From the NCBI GenBank assembly GCA_964347715.1, contig CAYGAO010000014.1, positions 1 to 24,405 of the forward strand: 24,405 nt of DNA, written 5' to 3'. Below, in pieces: positions 1-24,405 of this stretch. This stretch comes from an uncultured Acidobacteriota bacterium (lineage in GTDB: Bacteria; Acidobacteriota; Vicinamibacteria; Marinacidobacterales; Marinacidobacteraceae). The position numbers were made by a program, and so were the translations under genes. Position 1 is the stretch's first letter. Each line of letters starts with the position of its first letter. The notes below the pieces were generated by a model. It had not been told where the DNA came from and did not search any database. It saw only the letters and a program-made list of their open reading frames with translations.

Positions 1-100
1 CGCCATCCGGTGGGGAAAGCGCCCCGCATCCGCCCGGACGACCGGGTTCCCCATCGCTTCGAGGACGGATTCCCATGCGGGGCGTCTTGTCCACAGGCTG
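1..100 (+). mobile_element. MITE/REP-like structured element, copy a (B half in + orientation; the A half, if present, lies outside the window)
   Basis: Roughly 85% identical to 6096..6196 and 22780..22874 (ccggtggggaaagcgccccgcatccg...gaggacggattcccatgcggggcg...ccacaggctg). Ends with TIR-like ...cacaggctg followed by ctgacg. Confidence 0.8.
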
Positions 101-2062: not shown

Positions 2063-3234
2063 CGGAGGCGCCGGAGCCGTTCGACCGCCTCGACGAGGGT
2101 CTCGCGGGTCTTCGAGAAGGTGAACCGGAGCCGCTGCCGGCCCGCCGCCGGATCGGCGTAGAAGCTCGACCCCGGAACCGCCGCCACGCCGACCGTCTCG
2201 ACGAGCCACCGCGCGAAGGCGACATCGTCGGGAAACCCGAACCCCGAGATGTCCGTCATCACGAAGTAGGCCCCCTGGGGTTCGAAGCAGCGGAATCCGG
2301 CCTCCCGCAGGCCGGCGAGCAGCAGGTCGCGCCGTTCGGCGTAGCCCGCCCGCAGCTCCTCGTGGTAGGAGTCGGGCAGCCGGAGCGCGGCGGCTCCCGC
2401 CTCCTGGAGCGGAGCCGGCGCCCCCACGGTGAGGAAGTCGTGCACCTTCCGGATCCCGTCGGTGAGCTCGGGGTCCGCGATCGTCCACCCGACCCGCCAG
2501 CCGGTCACCGAATAGGACTTCGAGAGGCCGCTGATCGTGACCGTCCGCTCGGCCATCCCCGGCAGCGTGGCGATCGGCAGGTGCCGGGCGCCGTCGTAGG
2601 TGATGAACTCGTAGATCTCGTCGGTGACGACGAGGAGGTCGCGCTCGACGGCGAGCGCGGCGATCCGCTCGAGCTCGGCGCGGGTGAACACCTTGCCGCT
2701 CGGGTTGTTCGGGGTGTTCAGAACGATCGCCCGGGTGCGATCCGTGACCTGGGCCCGGAGCGTGTCCTCGTCGAGCGCCCAGTCGGGTTCGAGGAGCCGC
2801 ACATGGCGCGGTTCCGCCCCCGAGAGCACCGCGTCGGGGCCGTAGTTCTCGTAGAACGGCTCGAAGACGATGACCTCGTCGCCCGGGTCCACGAGCGCGA
2901 GCATCGTGGCGATCATCGCTTCCGTGGCCCCGCAGACCACCGTGAAGTGGAGCTCGGGGTCGAGCTCCATCCCGTAGCGCGAGCGGTAGTGCCAGGCGAG
3001 CGCCTCCCGGAGCGAGCGCGACCCCCAGGTGATCGCGTACTGGTTCTCGTCCCGCCGGATCGCCGCGATCGCGGCTTCCTTGACCGCCGCCGGAGCCGGA
3101 AAGTCCGGAAATCCCTGGGCCAGGTTCACCCCCCCGCGCTCCATCGAGAGCCGGGTCATCTCGCGGATGACGGACTCGGTGAAGCGCGACGCCTTCCGGC
3201 TCTGGCGCCCGCGCCGGGGCGCCGGGGCGCTCAC
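2059..3234 (-). CDS. Class I/II PLP-dependent aminotransferase (aspartate/methionine/kynurenine aminotransferase-like)
   Basis: C-terminal 391 aa of ORF 2059..5700(-) read SRFTESVIREMTRLS..GVNLAQGFPDFPAP..NTPNNPSGKVF..SGLSKSYSVTGWRVGW, the hallmark motifs of fold-type I aminotransferases. Start taken as GTG at 3234 overlapping the slt stop (GTGA); ATG candidates lie inside the conserved N-terminal region, so the exact start is uncertain. Confidence 0.85.
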   Translation of the reverse strand: MSAPAPRRGRQSRKASRFTESVIREMTRLSMERGGVNLAQGFPDFPAPAAVKEAAIAAIRRDENQYAITWGSRSLREALAWHYRSRYGMELDPELHFTVVCGATEAMIATMLALVDPGDEVIVFEPFYENYGPDAVLSGAEPRHVRLLEPDWALDEDTLRAQVTDRTRAIVLNTPNNPSGKVFTRAELERIAALAVERDLLVVTDEIYEFITYDGARHLPIATLPGMAERTVTISGLSKSYSVTGWRVGWTIADPELTDGIRKVHDFLTVGAPAPLQEAGAAALRLPDSYHEELRAGYAERRDLLLAGLREAGFRCFEPQGAYFVMTDISGFGFPDDVAFARWLVETVGVAAVPGSSFYADPAAGRQRLRFTFSKTRETLVEAVERLRRLR

Positions 3235-5561: not shown

Positions 5562-5934
5562 GGGGGCGTACTGGGTTCGACGAAGGGACATGAAGCAGCG
5601 ACTGCATGCCGGGGTTCCATCTTCCGTAAACGGTGGAGAACACACAAAAGCCAACAACGAACTGGCACTGGCTGCTTGAAGCCACGTCCTTCCTGGCCAT
5701 GCCTGCCGGGACGGGAAAGGGCGTAGATCAGGCGGGCTCTGCTGGCGGCTCTCCCGCGCCGTCGGTGAGCATCAGGGATAGTTTCCGCGGCGCGATTCGC
5801 CGGGTCGATGCGCTACGGAAGCGAAACGGGGAAAGGCGCCCTCGGGCGCGGGTTCCCGCCACGACGCGGCTAAGCATGTAGAGGTCGTTGTCGAAGACTT
5901 TCGGACGCGGGTTCGATTCCCGCCGCCTCCACCA
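5562..5934 (+). ncRNA. ssrA: tmRNA (SsrA), one-piece, tag reading frame GCC AAC AAC GAA CTG GCA CTG GCT GCT TGA (ANNELALAA*) at 5650..5679
   Basis: 5' GGGGGCGUACUGGGUUCGACG and 3' GGACGCGGGUUCGAUUCCCGCCGCCUCCACCA with encoded CCA. The 7-bp acceptor stem pairs 5562..5568 with 5924..5930 (one G-U). T-arm GGUUCGAUUCC. Internal tag ORF ends in the canonical ALAA-stop. The 3' block GUAGAGGUCGUUGUCGAAGACUUUCGGACGCGGGUUCGAUUCC matches the E. coli tmRNA 3' domain almost base for base. Confidence 0.92.
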
Positions 5935-5973: not shown

Positions 5974-5991
5974 GTCCGGTCGAGGCCTGAC

Positions 5992-6196
5992 GAGCGGTGG
6001 AGAAAGCCCTCGTGTGCCGACGCGGCGCGAAGCACCGCCGGGGGGGTCTCCCTCCCCGCGAAAGCGGGCGGAACGGATCGCGTCAGCGATACGGGCCGCC
6101 ACCCGGTGGGGAAAGCGCCCCGCATCCGTCCGGACGACGGGGTTCCTCGTCTCTCCGAGGACGGATTCTCATGCGGGGCGTTCTATCCACCGGCTG
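5992..6196 (+). mobile_element. MITE/REP-like structured element, copy b (full A+B, + orientation), between the ssrA terminator and the OMP stop codon
   Basis: Left end gagcggtggagaaag, right end ctatccaccggctg (imperfect 16-bp terminal inverted repeats). Internal hairpins include a GAAA-tetraloop stem (ccgccccgcGAAAgcgggcgg) and a long imperfect palindrome in the B half. Flanked by ctgac(g) on both sides. Confidence 0.85.
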
Positions 6197-6204
6197 CTGA
6201 CGGG

Positions 6205-7161
6205 TCAGAACCGGTACTTCAGGTGCAGGCCGAAGCCGTAGAGAGTGCGTTCGTTCGTCTCGAGCGTGACGGTGACCGGATTGCTCCCGTCGAGCCGGTT
6301 GCTCGCCGGGGTATGGCTGCGCAGGCGATCGATGGGGCCGGTCGTGTCGCGGAAGCTCTCGGAGGCCGTCCGCCGACCGGCGACGCCGAGCGAGACCGAA
6401 TCGTTGAGTGCGAAATCCACGCCGACGAGCACCTGGTAGCCGAGCAGGCGCGACTCCAGCTCCGTCTGGTTCGTGCTGGTCGTCGAGGCGAGGTTCTGCT
6501 GGACGGTTCGCAGATCGTCGTGGCGGTCCTCCGGAAAGTACCGGGAGATCGAGGTGATGAGCGCCGGGTCGTCGTTTCGCACCCAGGAGAGGCCGTGGTC
6601 CAGGTTCGTGAAGCCGACGCCGACGCCGAGCCCGATCCAGGGGGTGGCGCGGCTCCGGTTTGTGAAGTCGTAGTACAGGTTCCCGAACAGGTTGCGCGAG
6701 GTGGCGCTCCCGATGCGGTCGTCGGCGGCCACGACCTCGCCGTCGAGCTTCGCAACGGCCACCCCGCCGCTGCTCTCGATCCCGGAGGTCTGGTTGTACA
6801 CAGACTCCCGGTAGAAGTACTCGATCTCGACCCGCAGCCGTTCCGAGCCGGGGAACCGGTAGCCGAGCGCTCCGCCGGCCAGGATGCCGCTCGCGCCATC
6901 GAAAGCGTTGGTCCAGGCCGTCTGCGGCGCGTCCGGGTCCCCGCAGAACGCCGGCATCAGGTCGGTGAACGGATTCAGGTGCTCGTCGCAGATGCTGCCG
7001 GGCGTGTTCGCCGCCGAGCCGCTCAGCTCGAGGGCGGACGAGGAGTTCGTCCCGAGTCCCTGGCGCAGATAGAAGCCGCCCCGGGACTGGGCGCGGCCCT
7101 CGCCGGGGGCGAGGGTGGAGAGCAGGGCGCCGAGCCCGACGAGCGCCGCGAGATGTCTCAT
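6205..7161 (-). CDS. Outer-membrane beta-barrel protein (porin/OMP-like), with signal peptide and C-terminal ...KYRF
   Basis: ORF 6205..7161(-) of 318 aa. MRHLAALVGLGALLSTLAPGEGRAQ is a signal peptide. Alternating hydrophobic/aromatic beta-strand pattern (LRVEIEYFY.., GYQVLVGVDFAL.., LYGFGLHLKYRF) with terminal Phe. The SD sequence AGGAGG lies 8 nt upstream of the ATG at 7161. Confidence 0.7.
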   Translation of the reverse strand: MRHLAALVGLGALLSTLAPGEGRAQSRGGFYLRQGLGTNSSSALELSGSAANTPGSICDEHLNPFTDLMPAFCGDPDAPQTAWTNAFDGASGILAGGALGYRFPGSERLRVEIEYFYRESVYNQTSGIESSGGVAVAKLDGEVVAADDRIGSATSRNLFGNLYYDFTNRSRATPWIGLGVGVGFTNLDHGLSWVRNDDPALITSISRYFPEDRHDDLRTVQQNLASTTSTNQTELESRLLGYQVLVGVDFALNDSVSLGVAGRRTASESFRDTTGPIDRLRSHTPASNRLDGSNPVTVTLETNERTLYGFGLHLKYRF

Positions 7162-7173
7162 TCCGGATCCTCC

Positions 7174-7760
7174 TGTTCGCCGCCCGGAGGAGCTCCGGGG
7201 GCGTCCCGGAATGTTGGCACGCCGGCGCGCCCCGCCGGGCTCGGGGGACGATCCTCACGGTTCCGGCGCTCGCCAGCGCATCGACCAGAGGAGTCCCGAG
7301 ACCGCGATCGTGACCGCGGGAACCAGCCTGCCCCGGGGGGCGGCGGATCGTTCCGGTGGCGCCTGCGGGCCTCCGGTGATTTCGGGATCGGTCCCGCGGG
7401 ACGAGGGTTGCTGACGGTGATGACCGATGTCGGCCAGGTGATTCGGCAACCCGGGTGAACCGGAAAGATCGCAATGGACCCGAATGGATCCGAATTGACC
7501 TGAATTAACCCGAATTAGCCCGAATTGACCTGATTTGGCCCGAATTAGCCTGAATTGACCCGAATTGACCTGATTTGGCCCGAATCGGTCCGTCATGGGT
7601 CCGAACGCGGCTCGGATCGGTGGATCCGCGCCCATCGCGCGCCTCGGCCGCGGCCGGACGGGGCGATCAGCCCCCTGGCCCGCAACCCTTCGAAAAGTTC
7701 GGCGGTCAACCGATCCTGCCAGCCCGTCACGGGTGGGTTCGCCGCCGAGGCGGGCGCTGG
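7174..7760 (+). repeat. Long direct repeat R1 (about 85-90% identical to R2 at 9305..9720). It contains the promoter/RBS-proximal region of the OMP gene, a phased 10-bp array, and a 3' fragment of an AlbA_2/HATPase_c_4-like gene
   Basis: Direct alignment: ctgttcgccgcccgg..gctccggg..gttggcacgccggcgcg..ctcgggggacga.cctcacgg.., then ..cgcctgcgggcctccggtgatttc..ggaaagatcgcaat + decamer array + tgggtccgaacgc..ggatccgcgccca..ggacggggcgatc.agccccctggcccgca. R2 lacks ~80 bp present in R1 (about 7285..7365). Confidence 0.8.
7474..7592 (+). repeat. Phased 10-bp tandem array, about 12 units, consensus GACCCGAATT (read in the other phase, TTGACC hexamers every 10 bp)
   Basis: ggacccgaat ggatccgaat tgacctgaat taacccgaat tagcccgaat tgacctgatt tggcccgaat tagcctgaat tgacccgaat tgacctgatt tggcccgaat cggtccg. 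Confidence 0.85.
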
Positions 7761-7826
7761 CGTCAGGTCGCACTGATCCAGCCCGATCGGGGCGTCGATC
7801 AGGCTGGCGCCGATGGGCTCGTCCAC
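7593..7826 (-). pseudogene. 3' fragment of an AlbA_2/HATPase_c_4-family gene (C-terminal ~45 codons), duplicated together with R1
   Basis: ORF 7593..7826(-) ends ..DRLTAELFEGLRARGLIAPSGRGRGARWARIHRSEPRSDP*, closely parallel to the C-terminus of the intact gene at 9590..11074 (..LRRLQKDLEALRARGSIAPSGRGRGATWARIRRADRRSDP..). Similarity is lost upstream of about 7760. Confidence 0.45.
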
Positions 7827-7996
7827 CGGCGCGGGGGAGGCGCCCCCGCGCGGCGCTTCAGTCAGGATACCGGGCGGGAAGCGGGCAGAGTGAACCGGGA
7901 GGGGCCAGCGCGGCGCGGCGGTTCCGGGCGGGAGGCGTCGTCGCTTCCCCGGCCGGCGAGTGGATCCCGACTCGGCGGGTGGCGGGGGAGGGGCTG

Positions 7997-9100
7997 ATGT
8001 TCCACGACCTCCGAATCCAACGGTTCCGCCTCTTCGAGGACCTCCGGATCGACCGGCTGAGCCGCGTCAACCTGATAGCCGGGAAGAACAACACGGGCAA
8101 GACCACGGTTCTGGAAGCGCTGTTCCTGCTTTCGGGCGGGGGAGCGCCCCAACTCCTGGACCGGACCCTCGGCTTCCGAGGCATCGGCCAGGCCCTCGGT
8201 CAGATCGACCGGGTGCCCGAAACGCACTGGGAACCGCTCTTCTTCGGGTTCGAGGCCGGAGAGCCCATCGCGATCCGGGCCGAGACGGCGCGCCACGGCC
8301 CGCTGAACCTGACGCTGAGGATCGAGCGGCGAGATTCGGTGGAGGTCCGCTCGTCGCCTTCGGGCATCGCCGGGGCCACCGTCGTGGAAGGGGAACCGGC
8401 AGGGCTCGACCTGGGCCCGTCCGATCCCCGGTCGCTTCGGCTGGTCTGGCAACAGCGGGAGGAACAGCCAGCCGAGGGACGAATCGAACTGTTCGCCAAG
8501 GGCCTGCGACTTCAAAACCCCCTGGGGGCGCCGTTCCCGGCGTTCTTCGTCTCCAGCCGAACCCACGACCTGGCGACGGATGCGATGCGGCTGGGTCAGT
8601 TGCGGACGAAGAAGATGGGTGGTCGTCTGACCGAGGCGCTGCAGGCGATCGAACCCCGACTCCGGAGCGTCGAGGACAGTGTCGCGGGCGGCAGTCCCAT
8701 GATCTGGGGAGACATCGGGCTGCCCCGCCTGCTGCCCCTGGCGGCGATGGGAGAAGGAATGGCGGCGGTCACCAGCCTGGTCCTGGCGATGGCCGCTGCC
8801 GAGAAGGGGGTCGTGCTGGTGGACGAGATCGAACGCGGGATACACCACTCGGTGATGGAGGACCTGTGGCGGGTCGTGGACCGGAGTTCACGGGAGTTCG
8901 ACACTCAGGTCATCGCCACCACGCACAGCTACGAATGCCTGATGGCGGCGCAGCGGGCCTTCTCGCAGGACGGCGAGTCGGAGGCGGGGGACTTCCGGTT
9001 CCAACGGCTCGAACGGGCGCGGGACGGCGGCATGCGCTCCGTGGGACTCGATCCGGACGATCTGGCGGCGGTCGCTCGCCACGGTCTTGAAGTGCGCTAA
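7997..9100 (+). CDS. ABC-type AAA ATPase (AAA_21/AAA_15-like; the OLD/AbiL/PARIS-AriA/Septu-PtuA type of ATPase), 367 aa
   Basis: ATG at 7997 preceded by GGGGGAGGGG. Motifs seen: Walker A NLIAGKNNTGKTTVLEAL about 25 aa from the N-terminus, ABC-signature-like LPLAAMGEGMAAV, Walker B VVLVDEIERGIHH and H-loop IATTHS. The ORF-track entry 7595..9100 starts too early, inside R1. Confidence 0.8.
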   Translation: MFHDLRIQRFRLFEDLRIDRLSRVNLIAGKNNTGKTTVLEALFLLSGGGAPQLLDRTLGFRGIGQALGQIDRVPETHWEPLFFGFEAGEPIAIRAETARHGPLNLTLRIERRDSVEVRSSPSGIAGATVVEGEPAGLDLGPSDPRSLRLVWQQREEQPAEGRIELFAKGLRLQNPLGAPFPAFFVSSRTHDLATDAMRLGQLRTKKMGGRLTEALQAIEPRLRSVEDSVAGGSPMIWGDIGLPRLLPLAAMGEGMAAVTSLVLAMAAAEKGVVLVDEIERGIHHSVMEDLWRVVDRSSREFDTQVIATTHSYECLMAAQRAFSQDGESEAGDFRFQRLERARDGGMRSVGLDPDDLAAVARHGLEVR

Positions 9101-9105
9101 AGAGG

Positions 9106-9447
9106 ATGGGCAGGGAGCCCCGAGAGATCACCTCGCCGGCGCAGATTCTCGTCGAGGGGCGAGATGGCGAGCTGTTCTTGAACGTACTGATCGAGGCTCT
9201 GGCAGCGGAGGGGCGACTGACCGAGAAGCGCGCGGACCGCTCCGGGATTTCGTGCGGCAGGTCTCGGAGGGGCCAGGGGAACTTCGAGGCCCTTGATCGC
9301 CCTGTTCGCCGCCCGGACGAGCTCCGGGCGGTCCCGGACCGTTGGCACGCCGGCGCGTCCGCCGGGTCGGCTGGGTGCGGCTCGGGGGACGACCCTCACG
9401 GTCCCAGCGCTCGCCAGCTTCCGGCGGCGCCTGCGGGCCTCCGGTGA
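9106..9447 (+). pseudogene. Truncated Toprim-like (DUF4276/RloB/OLD-like) partner of the upstream ATPase. Only ~60 codons are unique before the ORF runs into repeat R2
   Basis: ATG at 9106 lies 5 nt after the ATPase TAA, with the SD sequence AAAGAGG. N-terminal ..AQILVEGRDGELFLNVLIEAL matches the hV(E)G..E..F Toprim-type opening of DUF4276/RloB/OLD proteins. No downstream DxD-type motif. Sequence from about 9300 onward belongs to repeat R2. Confidence 0.4.
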
Positions 9448-9720
9448 TTTCAGGACGGTTCGCGGACGAGGGCTGCTGACGATGACGACCGATGCCGGAC
9501 CGGGGATTCGGCAACCGGGTGAACCGGAAAGATCGCAATTGACCCGAATTGACCCGAATTGAGCTGATATTGGCCCGAATCGACCTGAATCAATCCGAAT
9601 CGGCCGGCAATGGGTCCGAACGCCGGTCGGCGCGCCGGATCCGCGCCCAGGTCGCGCCCCGGCCGCGCCCGGACGGGGCGATCGAGCCCCTGGCCCGCAG
9701 CGCTTCCAGGTCCTTCTGGA
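9305..9720 (+). repeat. Long direct repeat R2, the copy of R1. It contains the 10-bp array (9536..9606, about 7 units) and the genuine 3' end of the AlbA_2-family gene
   Basis: See R1. Array: gcaattgacc cgaattgacc cgaattgagc tgatattggc ccgaatcgac ctgaatcaat ccgaatcggc cgg. Confidence 0.8.
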
Positions 9721-11074
9721 GACGCCGGAGGTCAACCGGTTGCGAAAGCCCGGCCCGGATATCCCGGAGCGCCAGCGGATGCCCTTCGCGATCCAGCAGC
9801 GCCAGAATCGCCTTTTGCCGGTCTTCGCTCGGCTCCTTCTCCGCGATGGGGTCGGCGCTGCGTTTCGCCGCCCCGGGCTCGGGATCCGGTCGCGTCTCCG
9901 TCCCGGCGCGCCGGAACCGGACGGTCACGTTGCCCGCATCGTCCTCGATCTCGGGGCGGGGGAGGCCGGCCCGTTCCGTTTCTTCCGCGATCTTGACCGT
10001 CCCTCGACCCCACTCCTCGATCACGCCCCGCCGGTAGAAGGTCCGGGCGATGAGCGGATTCCACGGCCGCGACGGGTGCGGCCCGAAGAGCTTTTCGGGG
10101 GTCAACCCGAAGTGGAGGGTTCCGGGCGAGGTGACCTCCAGCCGGTCGTCGTAAACGGCGATTCCCGGCGAACCGCCGCCGACGGAGTAATCGCGGTGGC
10201 AGAGCGCGTTCGCCAGAGCCTCGCGAGTGGCCAGCGTCGGGTAGAGCGGCTCGTCGATGCGATCCATGCGACCCGGTTCGAACCGGCTGGCGATCGGCAG
10301 CGTGTCCCGCAGGAAACGCTCGCCGGCGCGGAGCAGCGCGAAGGCGTTTCCGTAGAACTGCCGGTTGTCGAGGAACTCCATGCGGTCGAGGCCCCGGAAC
10401 CGGGCGACCCGAAGCCGGCACTGCGGCAACTCGACCTCGAGCCGTCGTTCGTTGCCGAACACCACCGCCGCCGCCCGCAAGGGGACGCCGTCCCGGCAGA
10501 GACCCAGACCGGTCAACAACTCCCCGGGATCGCGGGTGCCGGGATCCTCGAGTCGGCCGCGTCGAATCGCCTCTTCCACCGTGCGTCGAATCTCGGTCGC
10601 GTCCAGATCCCCGACCGACCAGCCGGCCGCCGGCTGATTCTCCCAACGCTGGTCACCATGTAGGCGCTCCAACAGTACGCGGTGGTACTCGTCGGTCGGC
10701 ATGACGCGCGTCGTGTTGCCGACCCGGCGGTAGGCAGAGCCACGATACTCGTACGGCTTCGCCGTTCCCGGAGTCACGGAAACGACCACGATCTTCAGCC
10801 CTTCGGCGACGGGCACCCGCTCGACGGCCGGGGACGCCGGCGGGTCGATCCGCGCGAGCTCCTCGCTCAGCTGCTCGATGGTCCGTTCGCTCACCTGCTG
10901 CCCCACGGGCTTGCCCTCCGGCGTCACCCCGAGGAGCACCCGGCCGCCCTGCTGATTCAACATGGCGCAGACCGTCTTGGCGGCCTCGCGGCGCATCCCC
11001 GTCATTTTCTTCAGCTCCAGCGTTTCCGATTCGCCGGCTGCGACCAGCGCCGCGATCCCGGCTGCGGTGATCAT
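9590..11074 (-). CDS. AlbA_2 (divergent AAA, Schlafen-like) + HATPase_c_4 + C-terminal wHTH protein, the kind often annotated as 'putative transcriptional regulator / RecG-like'
   Basis: Start chosen at MITAAGIAALVAAGESETLELKK (ATG about 11074, overlapping the upstream stop as ATGA). Motifs: LELKKMTG..AKTVCAMLNQQGGRVLLGV (AlbA_2), LREALANALCHRDYSVGGGSPGIAVYDDRLEVTSPGTL (HATPase_c_4). The ORF-track N-terminal 67 aa are upstream extension. Confidence 0.8.
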   Translation of the reverse strand: MITAAGIAALVAAGESETLELKKMTGMRREAAKTVCAMLNQQGGRVLLGVTPEGKPVGQQVSERTIEQLSEELARIDPPASPAVERVPVAEGLKIVVVSVTPGTAKPYEYRGSAYRRVGNTTRVMPTDEYHRVLLERLHGDQRWENQPAAGWSVGDLDATEIRRTVEEAIRRGRLEDPGTRDPGELLTGLGLCRDGVPLRAAAVVFGNERRLEVELPQCRLRVARFRGLDRMEFLDNRQFYGNAFALLRAGERFLRDTLPIASRFEPGRMDRIDEPLYPTLATREALANALCHRDYSVGGGSPGIAVYDDRLEVTSPGTLHFGLTPEKLFGPHPSRPWNPLIARTFYRRGVIEEWGRGTVKIAEETERAGLPRPEIEDDAGNVTVRFRRAGTETRPDPEPGAAKRSADPIAEKEPSEDRQKAILALLDREGHPLALRDIRAGLSQPVDLRRLQKDLEALRARGSIAPSGRGRGATWARIRRADRRSDPLPADSD

Positions 11075-12842
11075 GCCCGCCCAGTACCCCGGTCGCCGTC
11101 CGGCTCGGGGAAGGGTTCGGGAAGCCCCCTGACGATCTTCACGGTCTCGACGCTCACATGGACGATCCGCCGGAACGCGGTCACCAGGTCTTCGGGCTTC
11201 TCGAACCACCCGTTCGGGTCGTTCAGTATCCCGCTCCGCTTGTCGCGCGTCACCCGGTAGCGGTCCATGAACCACTCGACCGGCGACCTGCCGTTCACCA
11301 CGTACTCGTGCGCCTCCGGCGGAATCCCGGCCAGACGAACGAACTCGTTCAGTATCAGCACGCTCCGGTCCTCCTTGTCGGCGAACCGCATCCTGCGGGT
11401 GCCGATACGGAAGTGCCTGGACTCCAGCCCCAGGAGCTTCGACGGTACGACCCGGAGCGGGTATTCGGCGCAGGTCTCATAGCCCAGATGGAGTTTCCCC
11501 AACGCTCGTCCGGCCTCCACGAAGGCGTCGAAGTCGGGAGCCATCGGAATCCGGGGAAGGCCCTTGGCCAGGTCGTTCGCGAAACGCTTGCCGTAGGCAG
11601 GCGCGTGGAGAACCCCGTACACATAGTCGAAGATGTCGTCCTTCGTGATCGTGTCGCGCCCGTAGTGATCCCGAAAGAGGTGCAGCGCCCAGTCCGTGAT
11701 GTTGTCCACCGGACCCATATCCGCCCTGAAGAGTTCGTCGTCGTCAAAGACACCCCCGTGGGTACTTGGGGTAGGTCCATCTGGGGAAGCACTGCCCGAA
11801 CTCGAGGAAGTGGAAGTCGGGCATTCGGTCGGCGAGGAGGACCGAGAATGGTTTCGTCGCGCCCCTCCCAGGCACGCAGATGACGCGATTCTCCGCTCGT
11901 ACTGGTAACGCGGGAAACACTGGCCCTTCGACACCAGCTCGAAGTCGGGCATCGTGTCGGCCATGAGCGCCGCTCCTCCCCGAGAGCGGCTTCGATCTTC
12001 GCCGGGTCGGTGGTCACCGGGAGCTCCAGCTCCTGGAGCGAGGCGTCCTCGTCGTTCCGCCCGGCGCGGGTGTCCGAGCAGATCCCGATGTATCGGTGCT
12101 CCACTGTCTGCTGTTCGGCGAAGGCGCGCATGGACTGCTGCAGCAGCGAGATCGAGGGGACCAGGTAGAGGACCCGCCCGCCGATCCCGACCATCTCCTC
12201 GGCGATCCGCATCGCGGTGAAGGTCTTGCCCGTGCCGCAGGCCATGACCAGCTTCCCGCGGTCGGCGCTCCCGAACCCGGCCCGCACCGCCTCGATCGCC
12301 TGTTGCTGGTGCTTCCGCGCGGTGAACGGCTCGGTCCGCCAGCGGAGCGCCTCCGGCGCCTCCTCGAGCAGGTTCGGCCAGTCCACGGGCCGTTTCGCCA
12401 GGTCGGCGAACTGGAGCACCTGGACCTCGGGCCGCTGCCCCCGGATCATGGCGAGCGCGTTCGGCCCCCATCCGCGCCCGGTGTCCACGACCATGCGGGC
12501 GGTGAAGTGCTTCTTCCCGGAGGCGGCGAGGAACGAGTCGAGGTCGCCCTTCGAGATCCGGGTGTTCGGCCGGTAGCACTTGCACTGGATGGCGCAGAAG
12601 CCGCCGTCGCGCTCTTCGGCGACGAGATCCACCCCGGTGTCCCGGGCCGAGCGCCCGAACCTGACGGCCCAGTCGGCCCACCGCGAGACCGAGGCGAACC
12701 GGTCCCGGTAGAGCGGATCCTCCAGGAGGTATCTCCGGATCAGCCGCTCGAAGAGCGCCCCCTGCTCGGCCGGCGAGCCGGACCGCTCGAAGATCTGGTC
12801 CAGGACTGTCCGCAGGTCGTGCATCGGCCGCCGCTCCCCCAT
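11071..12842 (-). pseudogene. Decayed type ISP restriction-modification enzyme. An N-terminal Mrr-like PD-(D/E)xK nuclease and the first helicase motifs run in one frame (12842..~11985). A frameshift then joins a C-terminal type-ISP-like domain in another frame (~11750..11071). Most of the helicase, the whole MTase and most of the TRD are missing
   Basis: ORF 11355..12842(-) reads GVDLVAEERDGGFCAIQCKCY (nuclease), then MACGTGKTFTAMRIAEE (helicase motif I) and YLVPSISLLQQ, and turns to nonsense after ..AALGEERR. ORF 11071..13224(-) carries real-looking sequence only from ..LMADTMPDFELVSKGQCFPRY.. and MGPVDNITDWALHLFRDHYG...HEYVVNGRSPVEWFMDRYRVTRDKRSGILNDPNGWF (the type ISP C-terminal domain pattern) up to the stop. 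Total length ~1.8 kb against ~4.7 kb for an intact enzyme. A ~70-bp internal duplication sits at 11772..11845 and 11896..11975. Confidence 0.65.
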
Positions 12843-13012
12843 CCCGATCCGGGCGGAGCGGATTATCCCCGGCGGGCCGGCGCGCCGGGGGCTTGAATCG
12901 CCGGGGCGTCCCCGAATATGCTCCGCGCGCTTCCGGGCGCCGTCGCGCAGGGTCGGCGGCGGCCCCGGTGTCTCGGAGGGTGCCGCCCGGCGGGGTGGAA
13001 GGAAGGTTGCTG

Positions 13013-14341
13013 ATGCTCAGGCGAATCCGGTGGATCGCGCCGACGGTGCTCCTGTCCGCGCTCCTGTGGGCCGAGCCGGCTCTCGCCCAGGACGGGGACG
13101 CGATGAGCACGGTCGGGCTCGACACGGTCTTCGTCCTCCTGTCGGCGTTCCTCGTGTTCCTGATGCAGGCAGGGTTCGGGATGCTCGAGGCCGGGTTCAT
13201 CCGCGCGAAGAACACCTCGAACATCCTGACGAAGAACTTCCTCGACTACTGCTTCGCCTCGCTCGGATTCTTCATCTTCGGCTACGCGATCATGTTCTCC
13301 GAGGGGAACGGGCTCTTCGGGACGAGCGGCTTCCTGATGCTCGGAGCCGAATCTCCGGCGGATGTGCCGCTGTGGGCGTTCTGGCTGTTCCAGGCGGCGT
13401 TCTGCGGCGCGGCGGCGACGATCGTCGCCGGCGGGATGGCCGAGCGGATGAAGTTCACCGCCTACCTGGCCTACTCCTTCATCATCTCGGCGTTCGTGTA
13501 TCCGGTCGTCGGACACTGGACCTGGGGCGGCGGCTGGCTCGCCGGACTCGACTTCTTCGACTTCGCCGGCTCGACGGTCGTGCACCTGACGGGCGGGGCC
13601 ACCGCGCTCGTGGGCGCGTGGATCCTCGGCCCCCGGCTCGGGAGGTTCAACGCCGACGGCACGGTGAACTTCATCGCCGGGCACTCGGTGCCGCTCGCCA
13701 CGCTCGGGACCTTCATCCTCTGGTTCGGGTGGTTCGGCTTCAACGCCGGATCGAATCTGGCGGTCGGAGACGGCGAGGCGATTTCGCTGATCGCGATCAA
13801 CACGAACCTCGCCGCCGCCGCCGGGGCGCTCGTGACCACCTTCATCTCCTGGATCATCTGGGGGAAGCCGGACCTGTTCTTCACCATGAACGGCGCCCTC
13901 GCCGGGCTCGTCTCCGTCACCGCTCCGTGCGCGGTGGTGAGTCCGTTCGCGGCGATCTGGATCGGCGTCGTCGGAGGGTTCGTGGTCGTCTTCGCCACCA
14001 CCGCGCTCACGAAGATCCGGATAGACGACCCCTGCGGCGCCTTCCCGGTGCACGGGGCCTGCGGGTTCTGGGGCACGCTCGCGGTCGGCCTCTGGGGTCG
14101 CGAGCCGCTCGGCCTCGCCCGGGAAGGCCTCTTCTACGGCGGCGGTTTCGAGCAACTCGGGATCCAGGCGCTCGGCAGCCTCGCCACCGCCGCCTTCATC
14201 ATGGTGGCGATGGGGCTCGTCTTCCTCACGATCAAGGCGCTCTTCGGCCTCCGGGTCTCCCGCGCCGAGGAGATCCGCGGCCTCGACGAGAACGAACACG
14301 GCATGGAGTCCTACACCGGGTTCCAGATCCTGAGCTCCTGA
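13013..14341 (+). CDS. amt: Ammonium transporter (Amt family) with signal peptide
   Basis: ORF 12893..14341(+). The likely start is the ATG at 13013 (MLRRIRWIAPTVLLSALLWAEPALAQ), with GGAAGG upstream. Amt hallmarks seen: DTVFVLLSAFLVFLMQAGFGMLEAGFIR, ..FDFAGSTVVHLTGG.., ..WFGWFGFNAGS.., ..DDPCGAFPVHGACGFWG. Confidence 0.85.
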   Translation: MLRRIRWIAPTVLLSALLWAEPALAQDGDAMSTVGLDTVFVLLSAFLVFLMQAGFGMLEAGFIRAKNTSNILTKNFLDYCFASLGFFIFGYAIMFSEGNGLFGTSGFLMLGAESPADVPLWAFWLFQAAFCGAAATIVAGGMAERMKFTAYLAYSFIISAFVYPVVGHWTWGGGWLAGLDFFDFAGSTVVHLTGGATALVGAWILGPRLGRFNADGTVNFIAGHSVPLATLGTFILWFGWFGFNAGSNLAVGDGEAISLIAINTNLAAAAGALVTTFISWIIWGKPDLFFTMNGALAGLVSVTAPCAVVSPFAAIWIGVVGGFVVVFATTALTKIRIDDPCGAFPVHGACGFWGTLAVGLWGREPLGLAREGLFYGGGFEQLGIQALGSLATAAFIMVAMGLVFLTIKALFGLRVSRAEEIRGLDENEHGMESYTGFQILSS

Positions 14342-14372
14342 TGTCCTCACCGCCCACGGGGCACCCCCGCAC

Positions 14373-14714
14373 ATGAAACTGGTCACCGCGCTCATCCAGC
14401 CTGAAGTCCTGCCGAATGTGCAGAACGAACTCTTCGCCGTCCAGATTCGCAAATTCTCGGTGAGCGCCGGCGTCGGACACGGCACCCAGAAGGGCTGGGA
14501 AGCCACCTTCGGCGGCGTCCAGACCCAGGTGAACGTACTGAAGCGCGTCCGGGTGGAGATCGCCGTGAACGACGACTTCGTCGAACGGGCGGTGAACGCG
14601 GTGATGCGCGGCGCCCAGACCGGAGAAGCCGGCGACGGGAAGATCTTCATCACCGAGATCCAGGACTGCGTCCGCATCCGCACCGGCGAACGCGGCTCGC
14701 AGGCCATCGGCTGA
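14373..14714 (+). CDS. glnK: PII nitrogen regulatory protein (GlnK-like, amt-linked) with a non-canonical T-loop lacking Tyr51
   Basis: MKLVTALIQPEVL.., B-loop TGEAGDGKIF, C-terminal VRIRTGERG, 113 aa. T-loop GHGTQKGWEATFGGVQTQ against the canonical GRQKGHTELYRGAEY. Confidence 0.8.
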   Translation: MKLVTALIQPEVLPNVQNELFAVQIRKFSVSAGVGHGTQKGWEATFGGVQTQVNVLKRVRVEIAVNDDFVERAVNAVMRGAQTGEAGDGKIFITEIQDCVRIRTGERGSQAIG

Positions 14715-14723
14715 GGCCGTCCC

Positions 14724-16139
14724 GTGTCGCTGCGCCAGGTCCGCCGGCTGATCGCCGACAAGGACATCCGCCATGTGGACTTCCGTTTCGCCGACCTCCT
14801 CGGCGGCTGGCGGCACATCACCTATGCGGTCGAGGCCTTCGAGGAGGACATGTTCGTCGGGGGCGTCGGCTTCGACGGCTCCTCGGTCCGGGGCTTCCAG
14901 GGGATCGAGGACTCGGACATGCTGCTCCGCCCCGATCCGGAGAGCGTCTTCGTGGATCCGTTCTACAAGGATCCGACGCTCGTATTCATCTGCAATGTCA
15001 AGGATCCGGTGACGCTGCGCCTCTATTCGCGCGACCCGCGTTACATCGCCGAGAAGGCGACCCGGTTCCTGAACAGCTCCGCGCTCGCGGACACCTGCTA
15101 CATCGGGCCCGAGGCCGAGTTCTACATCTTCGACGATGTCCGGTTCGACCAGACGGTGAACGAGGCGTTCTACCGGGTGGATTCGGCCTGGGGCGGATGG
15201 AACACCGGACGCGAGGAAGGGCCGAATCTCGGCCACAAGCCGGGGCTGAAGCAGGGCTACTTCCGGATGCCGCCGACCGACCCCTACCAGGATGTGCGCT
15301 CGCAGATGGTCACGAACCTCCGGAGCTGCGGCGTGGACGCCGAACTCCACCACCAGGAGGTCGGTAGTGGCGGACAGGCCGAGATCGGCATCCGCTACAA
15401 GCCGCTCATCGAGATGTCCGACGCGGTGATGAAGTTCAAGTACACGATCAAGAACACCGCCCATCAGCACGGGAAGACGGCGACCTTCATGCCGAAGCCG
15501 CTGCTCGGCGACAACGGCTCCGGCATGCACTGCCATGTGAGCCTCTGGCGCGACGGCAAGAACCTGTTCCACGACCAGGACGGCTATGCCGGGCTCAGCG
15601 ACACCGGGCGCTTCTTCATCGGCGGCGTCCTGAAGCACGCCGGTTCGCTCCTCGCGTTCACCTGTCCCACGGCGAACTCCTACCGGCGCCTCGTCCCGGG
15701 TTTCGAGGCGCCGGTGAAGCTCGTCTATTCGCAGCGGAACCGCTCGGCGGCGGTGCGGATCCCGATGTATTCGGCAGCCGCGGCGGCGAAGCGGATCGAG
15801 TTCCGCTGCCCCGATCCGAGCGCGAACCCCTACCTCGCGTTCTCGGCGCTGCTGATGGCCGGGGTGGACGGCATCCTGGAGCGGACCGAGCCGCCCGCTC
15901 CCGTGGACAAGGACATCTACGAGCTGCCGGAGGCCGAACAGCGAAAGATCGGCGACACCCCGCCGACGCTCAAGGCGGCGCTTCGTTCGCTCGAAGACGA
16001 CAACGAGTACCTGTTGCGTGGCGGCGTGTTCACGCCGGATGTCGTGGACACCTGGATTCGCTACAAGCGCGCGAACGAGCTGGCCTACATGGACCAGCGC
16101 CCGCACCCGGCGGAGTTCGCGCTCTACTACGACTGCTAG
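14724..16139 (+). CDS. glnA: Glutamine synthetase type I
   Basis: GTG at 14724. Collinear with E. coli GlnA: ..VDFRFADLLGG.., FDGSS, ..GPEAEFYIFDD.., ..KPLLGDNGSGMHCHVSL.., ..NSYRRLVPGFEAPV.., ..RNRSAAVRIP.., C-terminal PHPAEFALYYDC. Confidence 0.92.
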   Translation: MSLRQVRRLIADKDIRHVDFRFADLLGGWRHITYAVEAFEEDMFVGGVGFDGSSVRGFQGIEDSDMLLRPDPESVFVDPFYKDPTLVFICNVKDPVTLRLYSRDPRYIAEKATRFLNSSALADTCYIGPEAEFYIFDDVRFDQTVNEAFYRVDSAWGGWNTGREEGPNLGHKPGLKQGYFRMPPTDPYQDVRSQMVTNLRSCGVDAELHHQEVGSGGQAEIGIRYKPLIEMSDAVMKFKYTIKNTAHQHGKTATFMPKPLLGDNGSGMHCHVSLWRDGKNLFHDQDGYAGLSDTGRFFIGGVLKHAGSLLAFTCPTANSYRRLVPGFEAPVKLVYSQRNRSAAVRIPMYSAAAAAKRIEFRCPDPSANPYLAFSALLMAGVDGILERTEPPAPVDKDIYELPEAEQRKIGDTPPTLKAALRSLEDDNEYLLRGGVFTPDVVDTWIRYKRANELAYMDQRPHPAEFALYYDC

Positions 16140-16348
16140 CAGCCCGTGGACAAGACGCCCCGCAAGGGAATCCGTCCTCGAAGAGGTGGGGAACCCCTTC
16201 GTCCGGGCGGATGCGGGGCGCTTTCCCCACCGGATGGCGGCCCGAATCGCTGGCGCGATCCGTTCCGCTCTCTTTCGCGGGGAGGGAGGACCCTCCCCGG
16301 CGGCGCTTCGCGCCGCGTCGGCGCACCAGGGACTTTCTCCACAGCCTG
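16140..16348 (-). mobile_element. MITE/REP-like structured element, copy c (full, inverted orientation), starting 1 nt after the glnA TAG stop
   Basis: cagcccgtggacaag...ctttctccacagcctg, the reverse complement of copies b and e. It explains the artefactual N-terminal extension of ORF 16211..17737 and ORF 14232..16367(-). Confidence 0.85.
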
Positions 16349-16441
16349 CTGGCGCCGCATGAGCCAAGCGTCCCCGATCGAACCGACTCCCGGAGGCCGG
16401 ACGCAGGAAACCCCGACCCCCGCCAACGGAGGCCCGCTTAC

Positions 16442-18568: not shown

Positions 18569-18850
18569 CGTTTCAGGCGCCGGCCGGTCGGATTCCGGAA
18601 CGCTGGCCGGCGGCGCGCGGCGCCGAACGAGCCGGTCGTGAGGCGTTCATGGATTCGGTGTCAGGCGACGGGGAATTCGACGGCCTCCCGTGAGCCCGGT
18701 CGGGTTCGGCCATTACGGTTTCGTCCGGCGACACCCCCATCTCGGGCGCCTCGCAACGAGCGCCTCCGCCTGCCGATCGCCGCCGCCGCCGTCTTTCCGG
18801 CCGCGGCGCGGATCCAGCGCGAAAGGCGGAACCTCGGGGCATCGGCGCGG

Positions 18851-19110
18851 AAGCGCTTCGATCCATCGTCCTCGCTCCGGCTCGTCGTGCTCGCTGGCAA
18901 CGGCGGGCGGCTCGGGGGGGCGGAAGCGCTCCGATCCATCGTCCTCGCTCCGTCTCGTCGTGCTCGCCGGCAACGGTGGGCGGCTCGGGGGGGCGGAAGC
19001 GCTCCGATCCATCGTCCTCGCTCCGTCTCGTCGTGCTCGCCGGCAACGGTGGGCGGCTCGGGGGGCGAAATCGAGCACGCCGATCCATCGTCCTCGATCC
19101 GGCTGCCGCG
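18851..19110 (+). repeat. 73-bp tandem repeat, about 3.3 copies (unit aagcgcttcgatccatcgtcctcgctccggctcgtcgtgctcgctggcaacggcgggcggctcgggggggcgg)
   Basis: Unit starts at 18851, 18924 and 18997 (period 73, >90% identity). A fourth unit is diverged. Because the period is not a multiple of 3, ORF-track frames shift between units. Confidence 0.85.
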
Positions 19111-19727
19111 GAGCCGGGCGTATCGGCGGGTCATGAACGGCGCGGTGGCCGGTGGTTCGGAGGCGCCGGCCATGCTCGCGGCGCCGACGCGAGGAACTGC
19201 CGATCGTGCGGCCCCCACCACACCTCGGGGTTCGCATCCGTCCTTCGGCGAACGCCCGGTGATCCTGCCGGTGTGCGCCGCGATCTGGCGGCGGCCTCTT
19301 CCCGGAAGGCGGCCTCTCGCGTGGGCACTGGGTTCGACAGGTTCCACAAGACCGGCGGGGACGGCGGATACCCGGGCGGCTCGGGCCGTCTTCGGTCCGG
19401 GTGAAGCGGAGGCGCCCGGGATCGAAGCGCGTCGAGGCGGCACTCCTGCGGGACCTGCAGTGGTAGCGCGCGCGGAGGAATTTCGAGGGTCGGATCGGCC
19501 GCCGGGAGGTCCCGCTCGGTGGGCGAAACGAGCATTCTAGTTTCCGGGAGGTGAAGAACCGTTCCGCAGGTGGCTCCGGAAGTTCTGTTGCTGGCGAGTC
19601 CGCCGGTGCGGGTGAAGATCGGCCCGGGCTCATTTCCCGCCGGGCGCGTGCCCGAATCCTGCCCGCAGCCTTGCCGTCGGCGACCACGCGGGGTTCCGGC
19701 CCTGCGGGGGCCTGCTTCGGATCGTGC

Positions 19728-19840
19728 CGGGGTCCGACGAATCGCTTCCGCGATTCGCCCCACCGTCTTTCGCGGGGAGGGGGACCCTCCCCGGCGGCGC
19801 TGCGCGCCGCGCCTGTACCCGAGGGACTTTCACTGCAGCC
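19728..19840 (-). mobile_element. MITE/REP-like element, copy d (A half only, inverted), ending directly at the plsC TGA stop
   Basis: cgaatcgcttccgcgattcgcccc...ctttcgcggggagggggaccctccccggcggcgct...gagggactttcactgcagcctg matches the reverse complement of the A half of copy e. The next 3 nt, TCA at 19843..19845, are the plsC stop. Confidence 0.75.
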
Positions 19841-19842
19841 TG

Positions 19843-20619
19843 TCAGGTGACCTTTCGGGGGGTCCACTCTTCACCGAGGGCTGCTTCGAAGACTGCCCGG
19901 ACCCTCGCCATGAGTTCGCTGACCTGCTCCCGGTCGTCCGGGTCCACTCCCGCCGTTTCGACGGGTTCGTGGTAGCGGACGCGCATCACGCCCGGATGGA
20001 TCAGGAAAGAGCCTCGCGGCATGACCTTCGCCGCTCCGCGCACGGTGATCGGAGCGACCGGAACGCCTGCCCGGATCGCGAGGCGGAACCCGCCGGCCTT
20101 GAAGGGCCCGAGTCTTCCGGTGCGGCTCCGGGTGCCCTCCGGGGCGATCACCAGCGATCGTCCGGCGCGAAGCGCCTCGCCCGCGGCCTCGAGGCTCGCG
20201 CGCGCGGCGACCGGGTTCCGGCGGTCCACCGGGATGAACCCCACCGCGCGGAACGCCCAGCCGACCAGGGGCACCCGGAACGCCTCCTTCTTGATCAGGG
20301 TGGTGTGCACCCCCGGCAGCAGGTAGAGCACCAGCGGCATGTCGAGCAGGGATACATGGTTCACCAGGTAAACCCGGGTGCGCCGCGGTTCGAGCCGGTT
20401 CCGGTCGCGCTCCTCGAACCGGATGCCGGTGATCCCCCAGCACACCCGGACGATGACGCGCCCGAGTTCGTAGCCGAGGCGGTGGCGGCCGCTGAACAGA
20501 TCTCCGAGCGGGATCAGGACGAGGCCGAGGATCAGGAGGACCGGCAGCGCGAGAGCGATTCCGGCCGTGCCGATGACCGCGCGGATGGTTCGCGGGGCGC
20601 CGAGCCCTTCTCCGGACAA
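19843..20619 (-). CDS. plsC: 1-acyl-sn-glycerol-3-phosphate acyltransferase (lysophospholipid acyltransferase)
   Basis: N-terminal TM helix, acyltransferase motif I YLVNHVSLLDMP (HX4D) and motif III VIAPEGTRSRTG. Confidence 0.8.
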   Translation of the reverse strand: MSGEGLGAPRTIRAVIGTAGIALALPVLLILGLVLIPLGDLFSGRHRLGYELGRVIVRVCWGITGIRFEERDRNRLEPRRTRVYLVNHVSLLDMPLVLYLLPGVHTTLIKKEAFRVPLVGWAFRAVGFIPVDRRNPVAARASLEAAGEALRAGRSLVIAPEGTRSRTGRLGPFKAGGFRLAIRAGVPVAPITVRGAAKVMPRGSFLIHPGVMRVRYHEPVETAGVDPDDREQVSELMARVRAVFEAALGEEWTPRKVT

Positions 20620-22528: not shown

Positions 22529-22671
22529 CCAGAGGGACTTTCCCGCGACGACGGCCCGGATCTCCTGGATGCGGTCGAGAGCGGCGTCCCGTTCCGTGCG
22601 GGGCGGGGCCGGGGTGTCCGCCGGGCGCGAACGCGCGCGCGACGAGATCGGCGGCACGGCTCGGGTCTCAG

Positions 22672-22874
22672 CAGCCTGTGGAGAAAGTCCCTCGCGGGCC
22701 GAGGCGGCGCGGAGCGCCGCCGGGGAGGGGTGCGGCGAGGGACCTCCCGCCCCGCGAAAGCGGGCGGAACAGATCGCGCGAGCGATTCGGGCCGCCAGCC
22801 GGTGGGTCCGGACGACGGGGTTGCCCATCTCTTCGAGGACGGATTCCCATGCGGGGCATTTTCTCCACCGGCTG
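22672..22874 (+). mobile_element. MITE/REP-like structured element, copy e (full, + orientation), flanked by a 4-bp direct repeat TCAG. The right TCAG contains the stop codon of the DUF3467 gene
   Basis: cagcctgtggagaaagtccctcgcg...ggattcccatgcggggcattttctccaccggctg. The terminal inverted repeats are cagcctgtggagaaa and tttctccaccggctg. TCAG at 22668..22671 and 22875..22878. Confidence 0.88.
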
Positions 22875-23198
22875 TCAGTGGACGAGCGTGACCCCGGGGC
22901 TGCTCGGCTTCGGGGGCTCGTCGTTCTCCGCTTCCTCGACGGCGCGCAACTGCGTCTCGAGCATCTTGATCAGCGCCGGGACGAGCCGAAACGGCATCGT
23001 CACCCGCGCCTTCGGCTCGGCGTGCACGACCGCATCTTCGGTGATCTCGGTCGAGGCGAGGTCCTCCGGCTGGATTCCGGTGAGGCTGCAGAAGGTGAGC
23101 GTCAGGTCGAACGGCGAATGCGTGGCTTCGCAGAAGTTCGCGTACACCTCGGGGCAGGAGGCGTCCCGACGCGCCTTGATCTTGAAAGTCCGCTTCAT
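22875..23198 (-). CDS. DUF3467-family small protein
   Basis: ..VYANFCEATHSPFDLTLTF..KARVTMPFRLVPALIKMLETQLRAVEE resembles the DUF3467 pattern (..ITHSP.EFVLDF..). The stop codon lies inside the TCAG flank of MITE copy e. Confidence 0.5.
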   Translation of the reverse strand: MKRTFKIKARRDASCPEVYANFCEATHSPFDLTLTFCSLTGIQPEDLASTEITEDAVVHAEPKARVTMPFRLVPALIKMLETQLRAVEEAENDEPPKPSSPGVTLVH

Positions 23199-24048: not shown

Positions 24049-24330
24049 TCAGGCCCGCGACTGCTCGCGTTCCTTCGCTTCTTCCTCTTCCAGTTCGAAC
24101 CTGGTCACTTCCTCTTCCGTCAGGACGCCGGCGTGCTTCCAGATCGGCTCCTGCGGACCCGGAGTGATTCCGTCGAGGTCCGGGTCCGGCCCGCCGTGGG
24201 GAGCCTGCCGAGCGTCGGCGGCCTTCTCGTGGGCCCGCTCGCGACGGCGGAGCTCCTTCGCCCGCTGCTTCGCGACGCGCTCCTTTTCCTTGCGCCGTTT
24301 CAGAAAGGTCTGGCGCGAGCGATTGGGCAT
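24049..24330 (-). CDS. Hypothetical small highly basic/acidic charged protein (93 aa)
   Basis: ORF only. KRRKEKERVAKQRAKELRRRERAHEK.. is charged coiled-coil-like, and MITE copy f lies 15 nt upstream of its start. Confidence 0.35.
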   Translation of the reverse strand: MPNRSRQTFLKRRKEKERVAKQRAKELRRRERAHEKAADARQAPHGGPDPDLDGITPGPQEPIWKHAGVLTEEEVTRFELEEEEAKEREQSRA

Positions 24331-24344
24331 GGCGGAAATCCTAG

Positions 24345-24405
24345 CAGGTCGTGGAGAAAGTCCCTCGCGCGCCGACGCGGCGCGAAGCGCCGCCGGGGAG
24401 GGGCC
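24345..24405 (+). mobile_element. MITE/REP-like element, copy f (start of the A half, truncated by the window end)
   Basis: caggtcgtggagaaagtccctcgcgcgccgacgcggcgcgaagcgccgccggggagggg aligns with the A half of copies b and e. Preceded by ...cctag. Confidence 0.75.

Follow-up and report, generated by a model that had tools for sequence, protein, structure and literature searches.

A miniature inverted-repeat element flush with stop codons in an uncultured acidobacterium

The window analyzed here, a stretch of 24,405 nucleotides (71% G+C) from an uncultured member of the Marinacidobacteraceae (Acidobacteriota; contig CAYGAO010000014.1), contains six copies (a-f) of a non-coding repeat that repeatedly lies flush against the stop codons of flanking genes. 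[quoted passage not shown] We consider it highly probable that the placement reflects a target site containing a stop triplet, which the target duplication restores upon insertion, together with selection against gene disruption. A preliminary description of the window had offered two readings of the same placement: use as terminators or mRNA stabilizers in the manner of repetitive extragenic palindromic (REP) or Correia elements, or a target preference for TGA/TCAG sites. The latter is supported by the 4-bp duplications that border the element and by stop-like duplications at sites that are not stop codons, and is further backed by empty sites in one relative and, in another, by a second MITE that shares only the terminal repeats and has the same placement.

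Anatomy of the element and its copies in the window

Copies were located by repeat finding and alignment, then with an nhmmer profile built from four full copies. Full copies span 200-225 nt, and an alignment of 22 of them reveals common internal similarity and terminal inverted repeats of 16-19 bp; the element starts with CAGGCTGTGGAGAAAG and ends with its inverted complement CTTNTCCACNGGCTG, and these ends pair in the consensus fold. Each full copy is bordered by a repeated tetranucleotide, a duplication of 4 bp. Registers of 3 and 5 bp, compared by eye, render the terminal repeats asymmetric, and the 4-bp register was therefore retained. The element has the features by which MITEs are recognized: it is short and encodes no transposase, carries terminal inverted repeats and a fixed 4-bp duplication, and occurs as dispersed copies whose sites are empty in relatives. 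It is also nearly devoid of stop codons in all six frames, and its Arg/Pro/Gly-rich translations give no protein-family signal of their own.

An 89-kb contig of the ENA assembly ERZ25070786, 99.8% identical to the window, extends the reading by ~10 kb past the right window end (L003) and by ~3.8 kb past the left (L007), which completes the two copies cut by the window boundaries. Three of the six copies abut stop codons within the window itself. Copy c (16140-16348, minus strand; nhmmer E=1.1e-69) begins directly after the TAG of glnA (16137-16139), which forms part of its CTAG duplication (16136-16139, plus strand); the second duplication (16349-16352, plus strand) has decayed to CTGG and matches CTAG at three of four bases. 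Copy d (19738-19842, minus strand; nhmmer model positions 3-109, E=2.8e-18), whose end reads ...CAGCCTG, is followed by TCAG (19843-19846, plus strand), in which the TCA at 19843-19845 is the TGA stop of a plsC-like acyltransferase open reading frame (ORF; 19843-20619, minus strand). Copy e (22672-22874, plus strand; nhmmer E=1e-56), which the alignment shows to be full length minus an 18-nt internal deletion, lies between TCAG duplications at 22668-22671 and 22875-22878 (both plus strand), the right one containing the stop of a DUF3467 ORF (TCA 22875-22877; ORF 22875-23198, minus strand). Copy b (5991-6196, plus strand; nhmmer E=3.8e-66) is bordered by CTGA at 5987-5990 and 6197-6200 (both plus strand), and the stop of an outer-membrane beta-barrel (OMP) gene (6205-7161, minus strand; Pfam and ORF assignment), the TCA at 6205-6207, is 8 nt beyond the element and 4 nt beyond its right-hand duplication.

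These four placements agree with the preliminary description after corrections of 1-2 nt: for copy d, the end moves from 19840 to 19842 and the gap to the plsC stop is zero, as it is for copy e and the DUF3467 stop. The fifth, concerning copy a, does not survive. Copy a (1-100, plus strand; nhmmer E=1.6e-28) is the right-hand 100 nt of a 223-nt copy that is complete at L007:17060-17282 (minus strand). The reading frame of an upstream TPR/thioredoxin-like gene had been thought to run through the copy without a stop, but L007 shows that the upstream gene encodes a Peptidase_M17 protein and that its TGA lies in the left CTGA duplication, outside the window. An open frame does cross positions 1-100, but only because the element is almost stop-free in every frame; the right duplication (CTGA, 101-104, plus strand) does not serve as a stop codon. 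Copy f (24345-24405, plus strand), cut by the window end and complete at L003:9777-9986, had been absent from the earlier argument. Its CTAG flank (24341-24344, plus strand) lies 10 nt upstream of the start codon of a 93-aa ORF (24049-24330, minus strand), in a divergent promoter region and not at a gene 3' end. Placement at gene 3' ends, described as consistent, therefore does not extend to every copy.

A half-size form of 105-130 nt, comprising the left terminal repeat and the left half of the element, constitutes a separate short subfamily. Copy d shares diagnostic substitutions with two other members of it, L019:13222-13330 and L001:471-594, the latter having a short right end of its own (...ACCTG) and TTGA/TTGA flanks.

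Insertion sites, target choice and related genomes

To broaden the sample, translations of the element were used as bait against a protein collection. A one-frame translation returned one spurious ORF, and a concatenation of twelve frame translations returned 18 proteins. The contigs encoding seven of these 18, together with the neighbors of the window, comprise ~180 kb from the same population (L003, L006, L007, L018-L023) and hold ~30 copies or fragments. In the genome collection, a search with a right-half pattern gave, among the matches listed, one true match and one chance match; the true match, L001, is a Vicinamibacterales (Acidobacteriota) metagenome-assembled genome (MAG) and the only named genome with the repeat among those matches. 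Pattern scans of metagenomes gave either zero matches or two chance matches inside coding sequence, and scans of viral contigs with terminal-repeat patterns gave chance matches only.

We tallied 21 intergenic insertion loci, counting tandem copies once and leaving out the L001 copies because third-position G+C did not separate real genes from spurious ORFs there. At nine of the 21 loci (8 of 19 without the two bait copies) a called gene has its stop codon within the duplication: a (Peptidase_M17), c (glnA), d (plsC), e (DUF3467), h (AIM24), k (ABC permease), n10 (D-Ser-dehydratase-like), n11 (Tricorn) and o2 (a 268-aa gene). Another five (b, g, j, n4, n6) follow a stop codon at a distance of 4-36 nt, and the other seven occupy divergent or 5' regions, or are 128 nt or more past a stop codon. 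Under a null of uniform intergenic placement, nine stop-duplication loci among 21 have P=1.3e-12, and the enrichment at gene stops over random intergenic positions on which the preliminary description depended is therefore borne out in this ~180-kb sample.

The duplications themselves indicate where this enrichment originates. Ten copies have perfect 4-bp duplications (CTGA x3, TCAG x2, TTGA x2, TCGA, GTAG, TGAA), and seven further copies match at three of four bases. A stop triplet occurs on one strand in nine of the ten perfect duplications (P=5e-10), and also in six of the seven that do not serve as stop codons (P=9e-7); stop-likeness therefore belongs to the target, and not only to those insertions that survived. 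Insertion free of any preference, with selection alone leaving harmless copies, for example just past stops, would accord with the strong avoidance of coding sequence and with the few harmless positions that short intercistronic spacers offer. We nevertheless regard this explanation as very unlikely: the duplications at non-stop sites are still CTGA, TTGA, TCAG, GTAG, TGAA and CTAG (b, j, n3, n7, o5, f), the boundary of the element is the stop codon exactly and not merely the region beyond it, and in-frame copies within genes sit at TCGA and GTAG.

The supply of such targets was estimated by counting target-type tetranucleotides (YTGA, YTAR and their complements) across 55.6 kb of annotated DNA, where 278 fall in coding sequence, 64 in intergenic sequence and 25 on stop codons; CTGA alone is the ending of 18 of 44 genes (41%). 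Random choice among the 89 non-coding target sites would place 28% of insertions on stops, and the 43% observed does not depart from this significantly (P=0.11). None of the non-bait loci lies inside coding sequence, where 76% of target sites are found (P~1e-11).

Two relatives with the same gene order as the window were reached through CarD homologs. The first, a marine metagenome scaffold (L012), contains zero copies of the element and zero terminal-repeat matches, and all six orthologous insertion sites are empty. In L012, plsC ends GGC TGA and glnA ends TGC TGA, both forming CTGA; the DUF3467 stop directly abuts the next ATG (TAG ATG); 20 nt separate the AIM24 stop and the NUDIX start; and an 87-aa gene has a CTAG 13 nt upstream, at the position of copy f. 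The stop codons and target tetranucleotides therefore predate the insertions. The second relative (L011, a 3.87-Mb genome with 78% CarD identity) also has zero copies of the window element; its plsC, like that of L012, ends in CTGA without an element, and at the glnA/Band_7 site of copy c both relatives feature only a spacer of 39-69 nt, likewise without an element.

L011 instead carries nine copies of a ~190-nt MITE whose interior is unrelated to that of the window element and whose ends are the same (CAGCCTGTGG..AAA). These copies (2164-2342, 2997-3211, ~6511-6628, 7019-7199, 7203-7390, 8619-~8745, ~9650-9828, 10652-10830 and 14363-14540) are flanked by CTAG, CTAA, TTAA or TTGA, and four of the nine lie exactly on stop codons, those of AIM24, CarD, Band_7 and DUF3467. 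Three share their sites with copies h/i, e and f of the window genome, which indicates either that hot spots are used repeatedly or that older copies were replaced. That two different interiors come with identical ends and placement points to the machinery of transposition, rather than the structured interior, as the cause of that placement.

Copies also occur in tandem or clustered arrangements (L003:4895-5327, L019:13013-13330, L011:7019-7390, L023:1935-2750), where newer copies seem to have hit the duplication or a terminal repeat of one already present and so build MITE arrays; L023 includes a 2.4-kb stretch without genes that holds at least three copies. Where the two duplications of a copy mismatch (window 16349-16352; L003:9773-9776; L006:19985-19988; L011:3212-3215 and ~6507-6510), the stop member is intact and the non-stop member is nearly always CCAG or CTGG, or CGA for TGA. 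These are AT-to-GC transitions of CTAG or TGA, and resemble the CTAG-to-CCAG/CTGG bias with which very-short-patch repair is credited.

Genes are not entirely free of the element. At least four copies are embedded in genes without a change of frame, and in four of the 18 bait-matched proteins real domains flank the element on either side: a DnaE2-like polymerase (P0123), a GH4 hydrolase (P0129), an AAA_14/DUF4143 ATPase (P0124) and an AlbA_2 protein (P0131); in-frame copies were located at L018:12651-12874, L019:10589-10802 and L022:10578-10802. In the two that were measured, with duplications TCGA and GTAG, element plus duplication amounts to 234 and 213 nt, both multiples of three. The remaining protein matches are C- or N-terminal extensions produced by gene callers reading through a copy. 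This matters for the annotation of G+C-rich MAGs, in which callers extend genes through the element or invent ORFs, as in these 18 public proteins. Within L001, at 2246-3820 (minus strand), the left duplication of a full copy holds an in-frame CGA, as against TTGA in the other; the upstream ORF continues across the entire element and ends at 2246, such that the element supplies the end of the ORF. The CGA may represent either a stop codon that was lost or an error in the assembly.

Transcription, RNA structure and mode of movement

Fourteen of the 21 loci lie no more than 40 nt downstream of a stop codon. Copy c has a strong sense fold (-126 kcal/mol, z=-5.5; antisense -110 kcal/mol, z=-2.3), and reviews hold a terminator role for MITEs to be conceivable (PMC10969869). 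Even so, it is unlikely that the element is retained at 3' ends as a terminator or mRNA 3'-end protector in the manner of REP, Correia or SPRITE repeats, and this part of the preliminary description is not supported here. Identity as an intrinsic (rho-independent) terminator was rejected, as no G+C-rich hairpin with a T-run occurs in or beside copies c, d and e, compared with two such sites elsewhere where 2.4 are expected; the longest T-rich stretch after the long hairpin is TCTTGT/TTTTCT. Likewise, neither promoter-like nor terminator-like signals turned up when the elements were scanned. Five copies are sense and four antisense to the gene that they abut at its stop. Copies e, h/i and o2 separate gene pairs that were 0-20 nt apart before insertion, the right CTGA duplication of o2 being followed directly by the ATG of an sdhA-like gene, and copy k interrupts an opuA-like ABC-transporter operon, with the OpuAC start 13 nt beyond it; a strong terminator inside such operons would be costly or harmful. 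Other copies lie in 5' regions or in frame inside genes, and the L011 MITE attains the same placement with an unrelated interior. Target choice provides a simple mechanical account of a functional-looking pattern: repeats flush with stops need not be terminators, since a target that includes a stop triplet, and a duplication by which the stop is restored, can produce them.

The sense strand is more stable than the antisense by 2-18 kcal/mol in all 11 copies tested, and several fixed G-U pairs and GNRA-like loops are present, which might be taken to suggest a family of small-RNA genes whose product is the structured sense transcript. That proposal is scarcely credible. Its duplications and terminal repeats show that the family originated by transposition, and no covariation supports a conserved fold: RNAalifold finds compensatory changes at 0 of 57 predicted pairs with 22 copies and at one pair with 11, although the copies are too alike for this to test structure, and sequence evolution appears neither to support nor to refute it. 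Strand asymmetry was set aside as evidence for an RNA product, since the copies descend from a single master and are randomly oriented relative to genes; the asymmetry may simply have been passed down from that master copy. Identity with a known RNA family was also rejected: at gathering threshold, Rfam 15 detects only the tmRNA and two tRNAs of the window, and a permissive search of 301 nt gave a best E-value of 0.87, which is not credible. The element is almost certainly transcribed within 3' untranslated regions and operons, and an effect at the transcript level is therefore possible; none is needed to explain the placement, and the analysis gave no evidence of one.

Conserved flanking tetranucleotides, GTAG among them, many internal hairpins and strands that differ in fold stability are also expected of palindromes moved as single strands by REP/RAYT or IS200/IS605-type systems, which use a fixed tetranucleotide without duplicating it. 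Such an origin is most improbable here. The tetranucleotide is present on both sides, perfectly so in 10 copies; the element has terminal inverted repeats and is ~210 bp long, not 20-40 bp; it inserts in both orientations relative to the asymmetric site CTGA; and no Y1 transposase is seen in the 180 kb.

Cut-and-paste movement of a MITE into stop-like targets, filtered by selection, accounts for these features together. In the mechanism we propose, the repeat would be a non-autonomous cut-and-paste transposon whose terminal inverted repeats are recognized by a transposase supplied in trans. A 4-bp staggered cut would be made at a Y-T-R-R tetranucleotide (CTGA/TCAG, TTGA, CTAG or CTAA), and repair of the gaps would duplicate it. 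Where a gene's final four bases are the target, one duplicate would remain as the stop codon and the protein would be unchanged, rendering the insertion presumably neutral. Selection would remove most insertions inside genes, and the only copies seen there are those whose length keeps the frame. Target choice and selection would therefore leave the element flush against stop codons; in a genome of 71% G+C, stops make up about a quarter of usable non-coding targets, and the flush placement would be a by-product.

Among the closest known parallels is IS5. Ends of the IS5 family usually start with GG or GA, and those of the window element with CAG. Like IS5 and the MITEs mobilized by IS5-like transposases, the window element has terminal inverted repeats and a 4-bp target duplication. 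IS5 duplicates Py-T-A-Pu, most often CTAG (PMC5493358). This target is matched by the L011 sister MITE (CTAG/CTAA/TTAA), and the window family uses mostly YTGA; the window element agrees with IS5 in duplication length and resembles it in target type, and its assignment to the IS5 family is tentative. IS3-type copies in L018 were considered as the parent element and rejected, their ends being unlike those of the MITE.

Several points weigh against this account. Neither a transposase for the element nor an autonomous element with the same terminal repeats was found in the sampled loci, the ends of IS21-type and IS630-type (DDE_3) genes in L018 being unexamined; mobility and the IS5-like assignment are both read from sequence features; and the main target, YTGA, departs from the canonical YTAR. 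The sample of ~180 kb was chosen partly for containing copies and is not a whole genome, and its gene boundaries are automatic, some calls being spurious. Lastly, the share of insertions on stops is somewhat above that given by target availability (43% against 28%), and there may be a modest additional preference for stops, or a benefit from them.

A further possibility, which we consider doubtful, is that the transposase moving this MITE and its sister family has evolved an (N)TGA/TAG target matching CTGA, the most frequent gene ending of the host, that stops are safe sites regenerated at each insertion in a homing strategy, and that the insert, lying directly behind the stop, alters translation termination or the fate of the mRNA 3' end. 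Group IIC introns seek terminators, and some insertion sequences seek REPs. If stop targeting were an evolved safe-site strategy, it would join these as a further means by which mobile DNA persists in compact genomes: the element could saturate a compact G+C-rich genome, tight operons included, at little cost, and its operon-splitting and in-frame copies would be natural experiments on polarity and on the tolerance of proteins to insertion.

Related repeats and the surrounding genes

Among the dispersed repeats of other bacteria, the MIRU repeats of mycobacteria likewise overlap stop and start codons of the operon genes on either side. Correia elements feature a TA duplication, 26-bp terminal repeats, an A+T-rich composition and an integration host factor (IHF) site, and to our knowledge they have not been reported on stop codons. 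The window element shares no sequence similarity with them and differs in its 4-bp duplication and acidobacterial host; with TA duplication, 26-bp repeats and a Neisseria host as criteria, Correia identity was rejected. In Neisseria, Correia elements (CREE/NEMIS) are abundant MITEs of 100-160 bp that are co-transcribed with their neighbors and form long hairpins, and one size class contains open reading frames and occurs as fusions to ORFs (PMC2229807). REP/BIME sequences are described as structured extragenic repeats that often lie at gene 3' ends or between cistrons, with proposed effects on termination and mRNA stability (PMC3733652). RAYT-mobilized REPs measure 20-40 bp, are palindromic, have a GTAG/CGTC head and lack both terminal repeats and duplication, and the size, terminal repeats and flanking duplications of the window element rule out this identity. 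SPRITE, another dispersed small repeat, is considered a possible terminator (PMC10969869) and has a terminator-like hairpin with a T-run, which the window element lacks.

Rickettsia palindromic elements and QMITE2 of Coxiella resemble the window element in having open frames and in occurring in frame within genes or as C-terminal extensions; QMITE2 extends enhC at its 3' end (PMC5896051). They differ in hosts and sequences, and the text consulted describes no stop-type target for them. In open-access text we came across no description of a bacterial MITE with duplications that coincide with stop codons, which is not proof that none exists.

The gene content of the window was assigned with Pfam and Rfam, its ORF boundaries being automatic calls. 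Besides the genes already mentioned, Pfam identifies genes for an aminotransferase and an SLT/TPR protein, and Rfam a complete tmRNA gene (5562-5934; 152.9 bits) that ends 56 nt upstream of copy b. The genes amtB, glnB and glnA (14724-16139) are followed by a Band_7 gene, copy c lying between glnA and Band_7, and the window also encodes a histidine phosphatase, CarD, two tRNAs and Trm112 (Pfam/Rfam).

A decayed-looking defence island occupies part of the window, comprising an AAA_15/AAA_21 ATPase gene (7595-9100), a Schlafen/AlbA_2 gene (9590-11275) and two out-of-frame remnants of a Type ISP restriction enzyme (11071-13224). Direct repeats of ~500 bp (7238-7732 and 9379-9758; 73-93% identical), which contain runs of a 10-nt unit (CCGAATTGAC-like), bracket the ATPase gene. 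In L008, a contig from another sample, the left context of this region differs from that of the window.

In relatives, pckA (PEPCK_ATP, 542-566 aa) is located between the plsC and histidine phosphatase genes. The corresponding stretch of the window (18573-19737) retains only weak remnants of it (tblastn matches at 19069-19284 and 18809-18853, minus strand), and the public gene call over this stretch is a spurious Arg/Pro-rich ORF. This decay of pckA may be connected with the truncation of copy d at its right end. Three tandem 73-nt repeats (18844-19065) also lie inside the pckA-remnant stretch.

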